Positions 1 to 10,867 of a DNA stretch of 64,000 nucleotides are shown here, piece after piece (the stretch's first letter is position 1; each line of letters begins with the position of its first letter). Under the pieces are notes generated by a model that had not been told where the DNA came from, did no database searches, and worked only from the letters and a program-made list of their open reading frames with translations. The translations under genes and the position numbers were made by a program. The stretch is from Nanobdellati archaeon (GTDB taxonomy: Archaea > EX4484-52 > GLR71), in contig JAHYJR010000001.1 of the NCBI GenBank assembly GCA_019429005.1, positions 200,663 to 264,662 of the forward strand, read 5' to 3'.

Positions 1-181
1 AATATTTGTTAAATATTTGTGCTAACTCTCACAAAAATATGCTAGTTTTTAGGGTATTTTTTAACAGATTAGCACGCTTGCTAACGTTTTATATCTAATA
101 CTGTATTTTTATTATTTTTTTGTCTGTTTTTTTATTTGTGTGAGACCAAACCTTTATTTAAACTGCGTTCTAAGATTATGT

Positions 182-1192
182 ATGGTATTTAAGCATCTTG
201 TCTTTTGGATTTCAGGAATTTTTGGAACTTCAAGGCCTGTGGTATACAAGGATGAGCTTGATGCTATTGTTGAAACTGTTGTGGGTGGGTTTTCAAAGAT
301 TAATTTACGTATTTCTCAAAGTGATAATGAACTTAGTCTTTTGAGACAATCTGTGCTTCAGACACAACAAATACCAATTAGTGTGAATCTTCCTCAATTA
401 GATAGCCTTATTATGGGTTATTCTACGATTTCAGAACGTGTTCATGTTGTTGAGTCTAATAAAGATGTTATTAGTAATAAATTATTTATTTTAGAATCGA
501 CGCTCTCGTCTCGTATTGATTCTATTGTGTCTCAAAAACTAGAATCTATGGGCTCTAGTACCATTTCCGGTTCTTTAACAACACCTCAAATACTTGAATC
601 TTTGCGTGCTCTAGAATCTTCTGTAAATCATATTAAATCTGAGTTAGTTACACGTTCAACTGTTGAATCTAACAACGTTACAACACCTAACAACAACGTT
701 ACAACAGCAAATAACAATGTTACAACACCTAACAACAACGTTACAACACCTAATAACAACGTTACAACACCTAATAACAATGTTACAACACCTAATAAGA
801 ACGTTACAACAGCAAATATGTCGTTTGATGATGATTTGACTGCACAAGACGATGTTTATGGGGGTTCCGTTGACTTTGGTCAGGGTGTACAAAACGTGTC
901 TGGGCCAAAAGCTTTTGGTTTTAAACCTACTCGTACGGTTGTCACTTCGCGTAATATGAATAAAGTACTTGTTTCATCCTTAATACCTGTTTTTAATGAG
1001 CTTTTAAATGCTGAGAAATTTTTATCTTACTCTGAATTGTCTAAACGTCTAAATAAAAAAGAAGCAACGGCAAGAGCTTATGTTAATGCTTTGAAAACTT
1101 ATGGTGTTTCTATTGATGAACAGACTGTTTCTAACGGGCGTAAGCTTGTAAGGCTTGCAAAGGATGTTGTGCGTAAATATCTTATTCCTTAA
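182..1192 (+). CDS. Coiled-coil plus C-terminal winged-helix DNA-binding protein with internal 7x heptapeptide repeat (NNNVTTP)
   Basis: ORF track gives 140..1192; ATG at 182 follows a TATA-like TTTATTTA near 153-160. C-terminus LSYSELSKRLNKKEATARAYVNALKTYGVSI...GRKLVRL has an HTH-plus-wing pattern; the central region is helical/coiled-coil-like. Confidence 0.75.
   Translation: MVFKHLVFWISGIFGTSRPVVYKDELDAIVETVVGGFSKINLRISQSDNELSLLRQSVLQTQQIPISVNLPQLDSLIMGYSTISERVHVVESNKDVISNKLFILESTLSSRIDSIVSQKLESMGSSTISGSLTTPQILESLRALESSVNHIKSELVTRSTVESNNVTTPNNNVTTANNNVTTPNNNVTTPNNNVTTPNNNVTTPNKNVTTANMSFDDDLTAQDDVYGGSVDFGQGVQNVSGPKAFGFKPTRTVVTSRNMNKVLVSSLIPVFNELLNAEKFLSYSELSKRLNKKEATARAYVNALKTYGVSIDEQTVSNGRKLVRLAKDVVRKYLIP
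668..814 (+). repeat. Intragenic tandem repeat, 7 x 21 bp (consensus AAyAACAAyGTTACAACAsCw)
   Basis: Seven units read directly; the GTTACAACA core is invariant in all seven. Confidence 0.97.
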
Positions 1193-1211
1193 GATGTAAT
1201 TCTTTATAGTT

Positions 1212-1341
1212 CCTGCTGTTATAACAGCAGGTTGTTATTCAATAACATTGTTATAACATTGTTATAACACTATTTAATCAATATCTATAGTCTTATTTAA
1301 TTATCTATACTGTTATAACACAGAATAACATTGTTATAACA
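1212..1341. repeat. Array of palindromic TGTTATAACA sites (1217, 1249, 1260, 1311, 1332), including a perfect 20-bp palindrome CCTGCTGTTATAACAGCAGG
   Basis: Read directly. The 18-mer AATAACATTGTTATAACA is present identically at 1241 and 1324. Confidence 0.93.
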
Positions 1342-1403
1342 GCTATAGAGACTACTGTTTTATATATCTTTCAACGTGTTTTTCATTAGTTAGGGGTTTA
1401 TTA

Positions 1404-1455
1404 GTCACTGAAGCTTCATTGAACTTTTTTTTGAATTCACTGAAACTTCACTGCA
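1404..1455. repeat. Four phased copies of the TTCAcTGAA pseudo-palindrome (1404, 1415, 1436, 1447)
   Basis: gtcactgaa, ttcattgaa, ttcactgaa, ttcactgca; spacings 11, 21 and 11 bp. Confidence 0.8.
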
Positions 1456-3054
1456 CTATAAAACTAAAATATGTTTTTTGTGTGTGGGTGTTTTTATCGT
1501 TTTATAATCTTTTTGTTTTGCGTTTCCCTCTATTTCTATTGTTTTTTTCTGTTTTTTTGATCTGTTAGAATCTTTGGGTTTGTGTATGTGTGTGTGTGTA
1601 TGTGTTTGGATTTTGTTATTTGTGTTATTTTGGGTGGTGTCTATTAGTCTATGTTCTGTTATAATTTTCTACAAAAATAACCACTTTTTGTGAGGGTTAA
1701 ACTTTTGTTTATTTATGTTGTTTGAATTTAGCTTTCTTATGGTCTTTATTGGCTCTTTTAGGTCTCCGTTTGTCTCGATTGTGGCATTTATTTTGTTTAA
1801 CTCTATATTATTTAGTATTTCTTTGTCTTTTGCCCCCCCCCTTTAGTATTCTCATTTGATTTCGTTTATTTTTCATTTAGATTTCAGGATCTTTTGTTTT
1901 CATTTTTTTTTGTCTATTTTTTTCAATTACTATCAATTTTCAGAATATTTGTTTTTATCTCTATTTTTGGCTTTTTTTTGTTATAACTCTCACATTTATA
2001 TCTTATTTTATCCTAATTTGGGTTTATTTCCTGTTTTTATCTAATTTAAGCCTTTATCTGTAATCTAAATCTATCTCTATTGTTGTATTTTCGTTGTGTT
2101 TAAGTCTTTTTAGAAAAAAATAGTTACTTTTGTTCCTTAGTTATCCTTTAGTCTGACACATCTTAACGTTTATCATGTATATCTTAGCGTTTAGTACTTT
2201 GTTTTTGTATTCCTGGTATCTGTCTCTTATTGTTCTGCGTTTCTATTATATCTCTTGAATTCTGCTCTATATAGTACGTATTTTTTAATCGTATTATATT
2301 GCTATATTTACTGTATTTACTCTATATTGCTAGTGGTTTTTATGCTCTTTTTATTGTTTATTTTTGTATCCTTATTTAATCTTGCTAGCACACTCTTTGG
2401 GGGTATATTTGTTTAACACAGATTTTTTATTTTACTATTTTTTTATTTTGCAGACTTTATTCACACATTTCACATTTTATTTAAATAGCTTCTGAATCTC
2501 TTTCAAATTAGACCTTAACTCTCACATTTAGTGGCTCATTTTATTTGTCTTTCTTTTTGAATTTGGGGTTTTTAAGTGTTTATTGTGCTGTTTTAACGCA
2601 CTTTATACTATTTAGATTTTATTGTATTCTGCTGGTTTTTTAAAATGCTTTATATCTTTATAACACACCCGTTTTTAGGTTTTTTCCTTTCAAATGTGTA
2701 TATGCCTACTGTTAAGCTCTATTTCTGTTAAATTAGATCTTGTCCTATTATATTTAGATTGTCTTATAGTTTCATAGTTTTGATATATCTTTTAAATACT
2801 ACATATTATAAAACTCAATTTATACCAATAGACAAGCATATCTTTATATTGCTATATCACTAAATAAATGGTTGTTTTATTGTCTATTGTGCTTAATAAT
2901 ACAGCTTATTTGGAGACAATAGCCCAAAATATGCAATCTTAGGCAAGAACTTAGTTATTTTGGCCTTTTCACGGCACAAAAATTCACAATTTTTTCATAT
3001 TAGGTTTCTTTTAACTCTCTCTTTTTTTATTTTTTAAAATTCAGAACTTAGGCA

Positions 3055-3456
3055 CTAGGGTGTATCAGATTCTGTATTATAGTTATATTTCTTTGCGCTA
3101 AACGCTTTTACTGCAAGCACTATGCTTTCAAAGAAACGTTCACATCTGTTTGATAGTTTATAATAATCACGTTCTTTTGTTTCTATTAGACCTATGCCAA
3201 TAAGTTTGTTTATCATGCTGTAATATGTTGTTTTGGATATATTGTGTTCCTTACAATATATATCCCAATTGGACCTATCAAAAACACCATTATTACCTTT
3301 TTGTCTTAGTTCTTTTAGGAATGTATAGGCATGATCTGGCAGCATTACATTTTTTGAACCTCTATATAACAGGCTCATAAGGCTTTCAAAATCAGGGGTT
3401 TCAAGCGGTTTTACAGATATTGTCGTGTGGTATCTTCTAGGTTTTTTTGTATCCAT
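3055..3456 (-). CDS. Winged-helix domain protein of unknown function
   Basis: NWDIYCKEHNISKTTYYSMINKLIGIGLIETKERDYYKLS is an HTH plus wing; a GTGAT SD-like motif precedes ATG 3456. Confidence 0.75.
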   Translation of the reverse strand: MDTKKPRRYHTTISVKPLETPDFESLMSLLYRGSKNVMLPDHAYTFLKELRQKGNNGVFDRSNWDIYCKEHNISKTTYYSMINKLIGIGLIETKERDYYKLSNRCERFFESIVLAVKAFSAKKYNYNTESDTP

Positions 3457-3791
3457 AATCAATCACATTGATTTTTTGTTTTTTCTTGTTTTTATGTATT
3501 CCTATATTATGTAGAATGGATTGGTTTTATTTTTGTCTAGAAAAAATACACCATTCTGATATGTATCTGAATACACAACACTCGTACAAAACCCCCTTGA
3601 TTACTAGCCTAAACATGGCAAAAATAGCGAAGCTAGTATGTTTAGTTTAGTTATATTAGAATAATGTAGTGTTACTAAGGTATATACAAATAAAAGTATA
3701 ATGATATAGTAAGATATTTTATATCTTATATATTAGACTATCTAAATACATATATATCTATATTACAATGTATATACTGTACAATGTATAA

Positions 3792-3960
3792 GTTAGGCAC
3801 CAATATTGTTTTTGTTAGGCACTAAAAAGTAGGGTTGTTAGGCACTATTTTTGTTTTTTTAGGTTATAAAATTCATTTAGATAATACGTATTTTTGTATG
3901 CTATCTGTAATTTAATGTGTATTGTTTATGTATGTTTGAATAATATGTAGTTAGGCACTA
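3792..3960 (+). repeat. Iteron-like direct repeats GTTAGGCAC(TA) at 3792, 3814, 3837 and 3950
   Basis: Read directly; spacings 22 and 23 bp. Further copies at 3048 and 10834. Adjacent to a very AT-rich stretch at about 3680-3790. Confidence 0.88.
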
Positions 3961-4041
3961 GACAGGTTCTTATTTAGCCCTTTTAATCAAAATTTAAGAA
4001 AAAACAGACTTTTTAGGCTAAAAATAAACAAAAAAACGATA

Positions 4042-4326
4042 TCACTTAAGCTTTTTCATCACTTTTTCAAAATCTTTAGCATATTCAGAACCTTTTTCAG
4101 TCAGTTTTATGTATTTTATACGACCTACTTTTTCAAAAGAAACAATACCTTTTTTCATGAAAAGCTCAAGTATCTTTACTGTATGTGAATATGTGCAATC
4201 TGTTATTTTTGCAAGTGTTGATGCATATACACTTTCATTCTTAATACGTAATGCTAATAGTATTTGAACGGGTTTTGCGTGTAAAAAGAGATCACATAAT
4301 TCTTCATTTTCTTTAACCATATTCAA
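4042..4326 (-). CDS. Small winged-helix (MarR/ArsR-like) DNA-binding protein
   Basis: VYASTLAKITDCTYSHTVKILELFMKKGIVSFEKVGRIKYIKLTEKG is a typical wHTH. Confidence 0.85.
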   Translation of the reverse strand: MNMVKENEELCDLFLHAKPVQILLALRIKNESVYASTLAKITDCTYSHTVKILELFMKKGIVSFEKVGRIKYIKLTEKGSEYAKDFEKVMKKLK

Positions 4327-4436
4327 ACCACCATTAGATAATTGTTAGTATTCTTACTATAAATATCTTTTTGATTTGATGTATATATACCTGCTGTTAA
4401 ATATATATTGTTGTACAGTTGTTCGGCAATTGACTT

Positions 4437-4877
4437 TTAATCAATATAATGCGAATCCAATTCCTTTGTTTTAACATTTGGTAGTTGGAATGGTGGTGGA
4501 AGATTAATCTGTGTTGCATTTATAAGTGCTGTTACAGATGCTTTTGCAAGAATGTTATTAAGTATAGGGATTATTATTTTTTTATCGATTTTTTTATCTG
4601 TTGTCCAGGTTTTAATAATATCTTCTGTTCCTTTTTCATATATAACACGTCCTCTTATTTTAATACCTGCAATTTCGCTATCATCTAATATATATGTTGT
4701 TATATGTTCAAAAAAGACAATAGCATTATATTCATTTATTGTGCTTTTAGAATTAGTATCTTTCTTTATAATTGGTTTGACATCAACAATATTAGCATGA
4801 CTATTAATTTTTATGTTGCCTTTGATATCTCTTTTTTTCCCACAATTTATGCTATCTATGAATGTTTTTAGGATCAT
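4437..4877 (-). CDS. Conserved archaeal hypothetical protein, SecB-like fold suspected
   Basis: Beta-strands, a long helix and C-terminal NLPPPFQLPNV resemble SecB-like proteins; ATGA overlap with the upstream ORF. Confidence 0.6.
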   Translation of the reverse strand: MILKTFIDSINCGKKRDIKGNIKINSHANIVDVKPIIKKDTNSKSTINEYNAIVFFEHITTYILDDSEIAGIKIRGRVIYEKGTEDIIKTWTTDKKIDKKIIIPILNNILAKASVTALINATQINLPPPFQLPNVKTKELDSHYID

Positions 4878-5056
4878 TGTGTATCTACCTTTGATTTTTT
4901 ATTTTTTTCAATCTCTTGAACAACCTTTGCCATATCAAAGCTGCCACGTTTTCCAAGGTATCTAATGACTTTCTGTTTGGATGTTTTGTTTTCCCACGTG
5001 TTCTCTACAAGATACCAATACTCATGACCTTTTATAATTTTTTTTCTAATAAACAT
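4874..5056 (-). CDS. 60-aa basic protein resembling the N-terminal module of IS1634-type transposases
   Basis: MFIRKKIIKGHEYWYLVENTWENKTSKQKVIRYLGK pattern; no catalytic DDE domain follows. Confidence 0.6.
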   Translation of the reverse strand: MFIRKKIIKGHEYWYLVENTWENKTSKQKVIRYLGKRGSFDMAKVVQEIEKNKKSKVDTQ

Positions 5057-5105
5057 TGGGGGTCTATATCTCCAATATACTTTATATTTTAGATTATTGC
5101 CTATT

Positions 5106-5333
5106 TTAGATAATTGCGTGGTATTTCAGTATGACAAATGCGATATATATTATCAATGTGAACATAAACACAAGTTCAATAATTTCTGAAATATTAAGTT
5201 CATTTAGACTTTTTTGAATCTTATTTTGCGTTTTTTCAACTTTTTTAACACTTTTGATTATTTCTACAGCCTTTGGCTTAGTTGTTTTTACAACGTTATT
5301 TTTTGTAGTTTTTGCAGTTTTTTTAACAGCCAT
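5106..5333 (-). CDS. Small Lys-rich protein with C-terminal TM helix
   Basis: ORF preceded by a GGTG SD; hydrophobic C-terminus. Confidence 0.65.
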   Translation of the reverse strand: MAVKKTAKTTKNNVVKTTKPKAVEIIKSVKKVEKTQNKIQKSLNELNISEIIELVFMFTLIIYIAFVILKYHAII

Positions 5334-5410
5334 GTAAACACCAATTCTATTTAGATTTTATCTGTATTTAAGTTTATCTCTATTATTGTTTTTTAGAAAA
5401 AAAGGATTAT

Positions 5411-5436
5411 GGAACTATTAAACTAAAAATAGTTCC
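5411..5436 (-). terminator. Hairpin GGAACTATT...AATAGTTCC downstream of 5438..6106
   Basis: Inverted repeat followed by a T-run on the minus strand. Confidence 0.5.
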
Positions 5437-5437
5437 T

Positions 5438-6106
5438 TTATTTTTTAAGTGATTCTTTTATCATACTAATTAATGTTTTATCTAGTTTTTGAGGTTTACC
5501 AAGTACAGAACCATATATTTTGTCAAGTTCTTTATATTTTTCATCACAAATGTCTATAATTGTGGTAAGTGTTTCAACATAAGTCTTTAACGTTCTCCCA
5601 TTATGTTTGTTATTTATATTTTTTTGAAATTCTGTTGTGTTTGCGAGTATACCCATAAGCATATTTTTTGCAATGAATTTACGTGATTCTAAAAGGTATA
5701 CGGTTTTATCAACGTATTCATCAATATTTTTTATAACAACATCTTTATCTTCATAATGCTCGTTTAGAGTTTCTACAACGTGTGTTTTTATGTTATTTAC
5801 TGAATCATATATTTGATCTAAAGTCCATAATGTTTTATATTTGTTAGATTCTTGTTTTCCTGTCGCATTTAAACAACTATAATCAATTACACTATCACTC
5901 GCATCAAGACCTTCCTTTTGATATGCTTTTGCGACATTATTACTATATGTAGAACTTTCTTGTGGTCTATTATCAAGATATGTTTCAACACTTTTATCAG
6001 TAATTTTTTTGATGGCTCGCTCTTTATGCCCTTCAATGTAACCAACTGACATTAATACTGCTGAAACAACTGTCAATATAGAGATAGTTAATGTAATAAT
6101 TTCCAT
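5438..6106 (-). CDS. Hypothetical protein with N-terminal membrane anchor
   Basis: 222-aa ORF with hydrophobic N-terminus and helical remainder. Confidence 0.7.
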   Translation of the reverse strand: MEIITLTISILTVVSAVLMSVGYIEGHKERAIKKITDKSVETYLDNRPQESSTYSNNVAKAYQKEGLDASDSVIDYSCLNATGKQESNKYKTLWTLDQIYDSVNNIKTHVVETLNEHYEDKDVVIKNIDEYVDKTVYLLESRKFIAKNMLMGILANTTEFQKNINNKHNGRTLKTYVETLTTIIDICDEKYKELDKIYGSVLGKPQKLDKTLISMIKESLKK

Positions 6107-6209
6107 TTAATCCACAGTATAAAATTAGTATTTAGTAGTTTATATATTTTATAGGTGATTTGAACTTGAAATATCATATATTTATCTTTAAATCTTTTAG
6201 AAAAAGGAA

Positions 6210-6282
6210 TAGTCCCGCCAGGATTCGAACCTGGGTCTAGAGATCCAGAGTCTCTTATGCTTGGCCTCTACATTACGGGACT
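6210..6282 (-). tRNA. tRNA-Gln(CTG)
   Basis: Minus strand AGTCCCG...AGAGA-CT-CTG-GA-TCTCT...CCAGG-TTCGAAT-CCTGG-CGGGACT-A; A1-U72 is typical of archaeal tRNA-Gln. Confidence 0.96.
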
Positions 6283-10776: not shown

Positions 10777-10867
10777 AAGATAACACCAATTCAATATTTA
10801 GATTTCGGTATTAAGTTATTTAACTTTATCTAAGTTAGGCACTAATAAATTTTTAAGGTTTATCAAA

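Follow-up and report, generated by a model that had tools for sequence, protein, structure and literature searches.

A winged-helix protein of DPANN archaea and a conserved array of its predicted binding sites within and behind its own gene

Partition centromeres such as ParB/parS (one Bacillus subtilis parS lies inside spo0J, a point for which a phrase search returned no paper) and SopB/sopC of the F plasmid pair a DNA-binding protein with its own sites. In enterobacteria, the coiled-coil protein MatP sits on short palindromes (matS) around dif and links that region to the division apparatus, and the Rep proteins of iteron plasmids, initiators such as RepA of pPS10, RepE and pi, use winged helices. 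We know of no ParB, MatP or FtsK in archaea. Here, we describe a locus of a DPANN archaeon in which the gene of a winged-helix protein contains, and is directly followed by, a dense cluster of 10-bp palindromes that the protein is predicted to bind. The locus lies at the start of a 64,000-nucleotide stretch of DNA, hereafter the window, which corresponds to C11:200663-264662 of the genome that we label G000 (1,078,986 bp, or 1.08 Mb, in 15 contigs, 30% G+C and 93.55% complete). The literature searched contains no such locus in DPANN archaea and nothing on DPANN archaea together with dif/Xer.

Two further systems bear on the comparison. The lambda O protein binds sites inside its own reading frame, where the origin of replication (ori-lambda) maps, with inverted repeats bound by O dimers (PMC5043065). 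In the archaeon Thermococcus kodakarensis, boundary 1 is a 1.9-kb intergenic region, AT-rich and rich in A-tracts, that lies between convergent genes and holds dif; it is bound by TrmBL2, stalls Smc-ScpAB, and is both required and sufficient for an Smc boundary, with no need of XerA or dif, and 57 TrmBL2 sites show TrmBL2-dependent Smc (PMC11840125). Inverted repeats that may be partner sites flank dif in Thermococcales (Cortez et al., PMC2958812).

A cluster of palindromes in and behind a single-copy gene

The gene (182..1192, plus strand) encodes a protein of 336 amino acids (aa) and is present once in G000. We place its start at the ATG at 182 (MVF...), as in all homologues; the list of open reading frames (ORFs) had given a GTG at 140. 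Immediately past the stop codon, the palindrome TGTTATAACA occurs at 1217, 1249, 1260, 1311 and 1332, against an expectation of 0.24 copies, and none of 100 shuffled sequences reached five. Half of the 10 copies in the entire 1,078,986 bp thus fall within 125 bp of sequence behind this gene, and five copies within 150 bp of a stop form the only such cluster in the genome. When the two middle bases are left free, the resulting pattern TGTTNNAACA has 88 copies in G000, and two or more lie within 200 bp of one another only in these five and in a pair inside the gene. The first site (1217..1226) begins 25 bp past the stop within a longer palindrome of 20 bp, sites 2 and 3 form a tandem pair with 11-bp spacing that is also found in relatives (1249..1269), and sites 4 and 5 occupy 1311..1320 and 1332..1341.

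An earlier, sequence-only reading of this DNA had drawn attention to an 18-mer, AATAACATTGTTATAACA, found twice in the noncoding DNA behind the stop and closely matched within the gene. The 18-mer is indeed exact at 1241 and 1324 and matches at 16 of 18 positions at 710 and 773, with further matches of 17/18 at 1252 and 15/18 at 752. At up to 3 mismatches, there are 12 matches where 0.84 are expected, a count that 0 of 100 shuffles attained. The count of two holds for the 18-mer and falls short for its palindromic core, TGTTATAACA, of which there are five.

Within the gene, seven 21-bp units (670..818, plus strand; 7.1 copies, 88% matches) encode the peptide NNNVTT(P/A). Each unit has the form AACA-N-YGTT-AC-AACA, that is, one full or nearly full site plus a half-site, and GTT ACA ACA is invariant in 7/7, as had been reported. 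Two of the seven contain a perfect site, TGTTACAACA, at 718..727 and 781..790 on the plus strand, both in the frame N-V-T-T, and the remaining five carry CGTTACAACA, which begins with CGTT and is one mismatch away. The unit length had also been read as two helical turns. Spacing near whole turns does hold for the gaps between the sites behind the stop of the window (32, 11, 51 and 21 bp), but the corresponding gaps in relatives are 11, 16 and 27 bp, so helical phasing is not a general property; what recurs across relatives is the 11-bp tandem pair.

An AlphaFold (AF2) model from a 15-sequence input (mean predicted local distance difference test score, pLDDT, 60.8) divides the protein into four parts. 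Residues 2-13 (185..220, plus strand) form a hydrophobic, moderately amphipathic helix with a mean hydrophobicity of 0.66 and a hydrophobic moment of 0.37; in six orthologues with a full-length MVF-type N terminus, these values range from 0.47 to 0.79 and from 0.37 to 0.54. We infer from this only that the helix might contact the membrane or other copies of the protein. Three long helices in residues 22-165 form a coiled coil, and a disordered stretch (residues 158-249, pLDDT about 30) contains the seven NNNVTT(P/A) units. The C-terminal part, residues 259-333 (956..1180, plus strand), is a winged helix-turn-helix (wHTH) with pLDDT of 88-96 in 10-residue blocks; it has three bundled helices and a beta wing, its elements, with pLDDT of about 90, being H265-276, H283-290, H294-306, E311-315 and E321-325. 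The top Foldseek matches of this domain are of MarR/ArsR/Fur type and include DNA-bound MarR/ArsR regulators, the best being a MepR-DNA complex (E 1.3e-3, probability 1.00). No Pfam model reached its gathering cutoff (HTH_11, 18.8 versus 25; HTH_24, 15.6 versus 21.9; HTH_36, 12.8 versus 25), and at E values up to 1 Pfam gave, besides these helix-turn-helix (HTH) models, low-complexity matches only. The 336-aa protein matched 0 NCBIfam and 0 PHROGs families, and the leads from the ESM Atlas, all below 0.9, were clusters of hypothetical HTH proteins from DPANN archaea.

The gene keeps housekeeping synteny. It lies downstream of gatE both in G000 and in a relative, G001, and its neighbors in genus g3 (which includes G002, G003 and G006) are the genes of ribosomal proteins L1/L10/L12 and of RNase HII; the neighborhood in G000 includes GatD/GatE, an archaeal pilin, a diphthamide synthase and L10P, a set that identifies G000 as a DPANN-type archaeon. 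Given this synteny and the empty PHROGs result for the protein, we rejected a mobile-element origin of the locus. In G000, a 390-aa ORF without a family match (C11:199433-200605, minus strand) stands between gatE and the gene; in G001, the homologue directly follows gatE, so the 390-aa ORF looks like an insertion.

Conservation of the array and a likely constraint on its in-gene codons

The protein family is small. We found 14 relatives among 5.8 billion clustered proteins and 13 cluster representatives scoring below 1e-30 among 1.84 billion. A search with the single protein had matches in 6 of the 9 genomes from its own family and in none of 51 genomes outside it; a profile search raised the first figure to 7 of 9 and added a second family, with matches in 4 of 16 genomes, each from genus g8 (including G014 and G041). 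A scan of metagenome contigs for relatives gave 317 pattern matches, 0 of them relatives.

The cluster of sites behind the stop is kept in 6/6 loci that have sequence there, across three genera. Within 200 bp past the stop, perfect copies of TGTTNNAACA number 5 in G000, 2 in G002, 4 in each of G006, G003 and G005, and 3 in G001, and at the orthologous loci more sites follow farther on, inside an ORF-free stretch of 0.9-1.9 kb. An array may contain as many as 13 perfect sites and extend beyond 1 kb. Taken together, six ORF-free stretches hold 42 perfect sites and 13 with one mismatch, whereas the background of G000 has 81 and 1529, a difference in ratio which indicates that exact sites are being kept. 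In G003 and G005, the array is organized as four or five direct repeats (iterons) of 115-127 bp, each with an 11-bp tandem site pair. Six of the 41 genome-wide copies of TGTTNNAACA in G002 lie inside 2.6 kb of the homologous locus, and the site block stands out as an island of identity when G002 is compared with its sister clade. The contigs of several relatives break in the gene or just past it, as repeats would cause.

The distant homologues of genus g8 differ in both protein and motif. These proteins, of about 240 aa, begin with a short helix (MGLFD...) and likewise contain a coiled coil as well as a related wHTH. Near their genes we found no TGTTNNAACA; there are instead 3-6 copies of GATAGTATCG, mostly extended by GTTAC, which lie only downstream of the stop and span 0.6-1.6 kb of noncoding DNA, followed in G014 by a convergent gene. 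The g8 genes contain no in-gene copies of this repeat. The array is conserved over an order of DPANN archaea, its motif changing with the protein. Because a different array occupies the equivalent position behind a diverged protein, protein and motif covary, which is the strongest indirect evidence that the protein would read the array. At one g8 locus (L033, on G041:C33), a partial second copy of the part coding for the C-terminal wHTH lies about 480-600 bp downstream of the homologue, before the array.

The sequence-only reading took the invariance of GTT-ACA-ACA among the units as a sign of selection on the DNA, with the NNNVTTP repeat as its by-product. That argument, confined to one gene, is not diagnostic: GTT (50%) and ACA (59%) are the preferred codons, and the units are recent tandem duplicates, so their invariance within the window proves nothing. 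Comparison between genera does favor selection on the DNA. Units of the NNVxT type with 21-bp spacing occur in all orthologues, three in g3 and seven in the window; G001 has two (DSVAT/DNVAT), which an AAYAAYRTT search pattern misses. The g3 units read AAC AAT GTT ACC ACA in five genomes and so keep the rare codons AAC (19%) and ACC (6%). Between G006 and G002, whose proteins are 51% identical, the same codon is used at 13/13 identical residues in NNVxT/NIVAT columns and at 62/144 elsewhere (Fisher 3.7e-5). The corresponding figures are 11/15 and 37/96 for G006-G000 (Fisher 0.012), 11/14 and 58/109 for G002-G000 (Fisher 0.06), and 17/17 and 48/101 for G006-G008, the last being dependent on the G006-G002 comparison. 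The 15 nucleotides of NNVTT are the most conserved window of that length in the gene, ahead of the wHTH, with 15/15 identical in G006-G002 and 14/15 in G006-G000.

The reading frame of the sites points the same way. The 12 perfect in-gene sites come from 6 of 7 genes and all share a single codon phase, x-V-x-T. The residue before V may be N, I, T, S or A and always has an NNT codon, and the residue after V may be T, A, V, I or G and always has an NNA codon, which is what the DNA motif requires at these variable residues. One Ile-to-Val change in G005 went from ATA to GTA and retained the site. Both classes of in-gene variant (CGTT and CACA) also occur as minor variants in the noncoding arrays. 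Free synonymous variation in homologues with no flanking motif would have spoken against the sequence-only reading; what we found is frozen codons and retained clusters. A DNA-level constraint on the weaker in-gene sites is thus likely, judging from sequence comparisons across about four independent lineages. In an unrelated setting, an ORF of G002 that runs off its contig (L044; G002:C14:63600-63800) has a run of N-V-T/N-I-T, looks like a glycosylated surface protein, and contains TGTTACAACA twice by chance.

The ORF-free stretch, xerA and dif

The DNA downstream of the gene is free of ORFs for 1.86 kb. Over 1193-3054, it is 50% T and 23% A, and the part behind the last site (1342..3054) is a T-skewed, A-tract-rich stretch between convergent genes. 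Its absolute AT skew of 0.388 is in the top 0.08% of 1235 windows of G000, and its A-tract tetranucleotides are in the top 4.4%. Similar stretches of 0.9-1.9 kb, with about 50% T on the strand of the gene, are present at the loci of all relatives. At E values up to 1, Rfam found only a tRNA at 6210-6282 and chance-level rows, with no RNA in the stretch, and we rejected a noncoding RNA there on this result. The stretch also contains a (TG)n run of 12.5 copies (1581-1605) and a run of nine C (1834-1842).

Two further motifs accompany the array. The motif AACTCTCACA lies upstream of the gene (24..33) and twice in the ORF-free stretch (1985..1994 and 2517..2526), all on the plus strand. G000 has seven copies in total, these three and four more within 2.3 kb at C8:115294-117577, in one orientation. 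The motif is found in the ORF-free stretch of every relative's locus, and in g3 it belongs to an imperfect hairpin with a run of T behind it. The motif TTAGGCAC has five copies around a gene for a 135-aa HTH protein (3048, 3793, 3815, 3838 and 3951, within 3048..3958, plus strand), all in one orientation, and this repeat, in its form TTAGGCAC(Y)A, has an extra copy at 10835. At the g3 loci L018 (G002), L019 (a G006-type contig) and L020 (a further g3 locus), the gene is preceded by 4-5 copies that share one orientation, and beyond dif there are 2-4 that point the other way, so that TTAGGCAC brackets the whole locus of gene, array, xerA and dif. The public record of the L019 contig assigns it to a Campylobacterales metagenome-assembled genome; its genes are archaeal, and it is probably misbinned.

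A convergent gene for a XerA-type tyrosine recombinase (Phage_integrase, 8.8e-41 in the neighbor scan of G002 and 8.7e-43 in G005) marks the end of the ORF-free stretch in G002, G003, G005 and G006. In G001, the end of an open-ended ORF at this place reads, by eye, like a XerA-type recombinase. Just upstream of xerA is a dif-like 28-mer, whose inverted arms of 11 bp are nearly perfect and enclose a 6-bp spacer. The pattern TCGCATAA-N6-TTATGCGA has exactly one match without mismatches in each of 4/4 relatives searched, all other matches having 3 mismatches, and this match is always on the contig of the homologue, 1.8-2.2 kb past the gene (L018, 7153-7180; L019, 6057-6084; L020, 3844-3871; G001:C94:4057-4078). 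Its distance to xerA, which lies downstream, is about 70 bp in G002 and similar, by coordinates, in G003 and G006; in G001, the sequence stops short of the start of the xerA-like ORF. One or two more copies of TGTTNNAACA lie 57-100 bp beyond dif at the g3 loci (G002, G003 and G006). We considered whether TGTTNNAACA itself might supply dif arms, since sites are arranged as 11+6+11 in G006 and G003, but the spacer is 17 bp in G005 and the window has no 6-bp spacer. There is also a separate, textbook dif-like site, and we rejected this idea.

In the window, the 135-aa HTH gene occupies the position of xerA and dif of the relatives. The block from 3055 to 6282 consists of six small minus-strand ORFs followed by a tRNA gene (6210-6282, minus strand); two of the ORFs, of 135 and 94 aa, encode HTH proteins with weak PHROGs matches to phage regulators, and one is 60 aa long. 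This block may be an insertion that replaced xerA and dif.

A candidate chromosomal landmark and its alternatives

We propose that the protein binds TGTTNNAACA in a sequence-specific manner through its winged helix, often at 11-bp tandem pairs, and that its cognate sites are confined to one place on the chromosome, namely, the 3' half of its own gene, the 150 bp past the stop and, in relatives, the T-rich stretch. The protein would pair through its coiled-coil helices and fill the array side by side, helped by the tandem or phased sites, to produce one single-copy nucleoprotein landmark of about 1-3 kb per chromosome, which the hydrophobic N-terminal helix could attach to the membrane or to further copies of the protein. 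Sites inside the gene would belong to the bound zone, and their occupancy would exert negative feedback on transcription of the gene. Such a landmark would most likely serve chromosome organization or segregation, in a centromere-like or boundary-like manner, and is unlikely to serve replication initiation. In relatives from two other genera, it would surround xerA and dif. The earlier suggestion that the protein binds sites within and beside its own gene is supported by the retained site clusters, the covariation in g8 and the frozen NNVxT codons; we consider such binding to the array highly probable on these sequence grounds. For the whole proposal, with a single-copy landmark built by a site-specific binder, we put the probability at about 0.5. 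The same suggestion had offered an initiator and an autoregulated nucleation site as alternatives, of which a nucleation site is our best guess and an initiator is not supported (see below).

A number of observations weigh against this proposal. The comparison set is small and related by kinship, amounting to about four independent lineages, and helical phasing is lost in relatives. In a codon-usage simulation with the peptide held fixed, a mean of 1.22 perfect in-gene sites arose versus 2 observed (P = 0.35), and the unrelated N-V-T-rich ORF of G002 carries the same 10-mer twice. The frozen g3 units give TGTTACCACA, with CACA for AACA, which is one mismatch off where the preferred codon would make a perfect site; similarly, 5/7 units of the window have the rare AAC before GTT, which spoils the site. 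No ParA-like partner or other conserved neighbor was seen among 26 neighboring proteins in G000 and 8 in G002. The assembled 93.55% of G000 has no PF00589 match, no XerA homologue and no dif-like site; the two best matches to the dif pattern there have 2 mismatches and lie inside ORFs, with none of the three motifs nearby. The link to dif thus does not hold in G000, unless xerA and dif are in the 6.5% that was not assembled. Nor are the g8 homologues on contigs with xerA or any tyrosine recombinase. Finally, another protein could read the sites.

One alternative concerns the in-gene part only, namely, that NNVTT is selected as a peptide, for a flexible linker or contact motif, and resembles the sites through codon preference and recent slippage, with no binding inside the gene. 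NNVTT is kept in 15/15 aligned family members and NNV words recur in distant relatives; the preference for GTT and ACA, the agreement of the perfect-site count with the null, the site in the unrelated NVT-rich ORF and the absence of in-gene copies from g8 all suit this view. It does not readily account for synonymous positions frozen at 13/13 versus 43% while the rest is near saturation, for the retention of rare codons, for the NNT and NNA codons of the variable residues around V and the retained site of G005, or for CGTT and CACA variants that mirror the minor variants of noncoding arrays, and we find it doubtful. That the protein is an ordinary transcription factor without an architectural role, with operators for a promoter of xerA or of a noncoding RNA in the ORF-free stretch and in-gene roadblock autoregulation, seems to us unlikely. 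The MarR/ArsR-like fold, the 10-bp palindromes, the 41 bp that separate sites 3 and 4, which are AT-rich and contain TATA-like words, and the one or two sites in the xerA upstream region of g3 loci would fit a regulator. Yet the start of the gene itself has no upstream site, Rfam finds no RNA in the stretch, G000 keeps the array although xerA was not found there, arrays with as many as 13 perfect sites, spread across more than 1 kb, go far beyond what an operator needs, and a long coiled coil with a hydrophobic N-terminal helix is unusual for a simple repressor. The sites on the dif side could alternatively be bound to form a synapse restricted to dimer resolution, in the way that ArgR/PepA act at cer and psi, the protein being a Xer accessory factor that replaces the missing FtsK control. 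The presence of xerA and a unique dif-like site at the locus in 4/4 relatives tested, with a tandem site pair 57 bp from dif and, in G003 and G006, a further single site about 100 bp off, favors this. We nevertheless hold it to be quite improbable, as gene and array persist in G000 in the absence of xerA and dif, the 420 bp beyond dif in G001 are free of perfect sites, most sites lie across xerA from dif, at a distance of 1.7-2.2 kb, and the g8 homologues and tyrosine recombinases are on different contigs.

The sequence-only reading had likened the protein to lambda O-type initiators, and a replication initiator would have its iterons in and beside its gene, with the T-rich stretch as the unwinding region of a second chromosomal origin. 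Repeated sites in and next to the gene, iterons of 115-127 bp in relatives, an adjoining long AT-rich ORF-free stretch and the precedent of ori-lambda (PMC5043065) speak for such a role. Family scans of the protein and its neighbors gave no domain of an initiator, helicase loader, primase or AAA+ protein; neither a Phage_rep_O-type nor a PHROGs replication domain was found in the protein by Pfam (E up to 1), PHROGs or NCBIfam, and Pfam has no Rep_3 match, with one wHTH modeled and not the pair WH1 + WH2. Downstream of the gene, 1.86 kb of ORF-free DNA stands in the place of a helicase-loader gene. The only orc1/cdc6 of G000 is elsewhere, at C11:107841-109058 (sole Cdc6_C match at C11:107880-108161, in a 405-aa ORF), 92 kb from the locus. 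Once the coding contribution is separated from that of replication, the replication skew switches exactly there (GC from -0.14 to +0.02, AT from +0.09 to -0.04), and an AT-rich region of 576 bp upstream of orc1/cdc6 carries six copies of a 24-bp repeat; the region C11:107841-109634 is likely oriC. At 200 kb there is no skew switch (AT from -0.07 to -0.12), the genes on both sides converge on the locus and do not diverge, and its 73% AT is ordinary, 16% of the windows of G000 being equally rich. An initiator is accordingly very unlikely, and we rejected both an origin of replication at the locus, given the orc1/cdc6 and skew switch elsewhere and the convergent genes, and a replication terminus, given the lack of a skew switch.

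Returning to the proposed landmark, the protein belongs to none of the ParB, SopB or lambda O families and resembles these systems in principle. As with ParB/parS and SopB/sopC, a binder is encoded beside or over an array of inverted-repeat sites that would be its own, and G000 has one such cluster, at and in the gene, on its chromosome, as a centromere-like element would. The likeness to SopB/sopC extends to larger direct repeats that each carry a site pair and to an array directly after the gene, as sopC follows sopB. Unlike ParB/parS, the locus has no ParB-type (ParBc) domain or family match, no ParA-type neighbor and a wHTH fold, and it is on an archaeal chromosome, next to dif in relatives and not at the origin. 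MatP is a ribbon-helix-helix protein with sites over hundreds of kilobases, whereas here a wHTH would use sites within 1-3 kb. Iteron Rep proteins likewise combine a winged helix with a direct-repeat array next to the gene, but this locus has one wHTH, no Rep_3, a single chromosomal copy with housekeeping synteny and no origin signature. Residues 259-333 share the fold of MarR/ArsR regulators; here, the domain is C-terminal, behind 250 residues of helix and disordered repeat, and has no evident ligand or metal site.

The candidate sites inside the frame, present as repeats in a tolerant part of the protein, recall lambda O (PMC5043065), but there is no phage or plasmid context, no O-type domain and no downstream helicase-loader gene, most sites are outside the gene and the Orc1 origin is elsewhere. 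Boundary 1 (PMC11840125) is the closest analogue in print. The locus resembles it in having an A-tract-rich region of about 1.9 kb that lacks ORFs, is flanked by convergent genes and, in relatives, is linked to dif. The independence of boundary 1 from XerA and dif would fit the retention of the array in G000 without either. TrmBL2 is abundant and acts at many loci, whereas here a dedicated, cis-encoded protein would use exact 10-bp sites.

A bolder version, which we consider improbable, is that the protein is a cis-encoded kinetochore or boundary protein of the DPANN chromosome, a counterpart of ParB/parS or MatP/matS with an unrelated fold. A dimer would nucleate on an array that reaches into its own gene, tether it to the membrane through the N-terminal helix, and position SMC, of which G000 has a hinge gene, together with Xer/dif; the NNVTT peptide would then exist because the array grew into the reading frame. 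If the weaker in-gene sites are under DNA-level constraint, a coding sequence is constrained by sites for its own product, which bears on the origin of disordered repeat linkers. For the marking, organization and separation of archaeal chromosomes, and for the control of Xer at dif, this locus would be a compact candidate, each genome having a single array of one exact 10-bp site for a single small protein.

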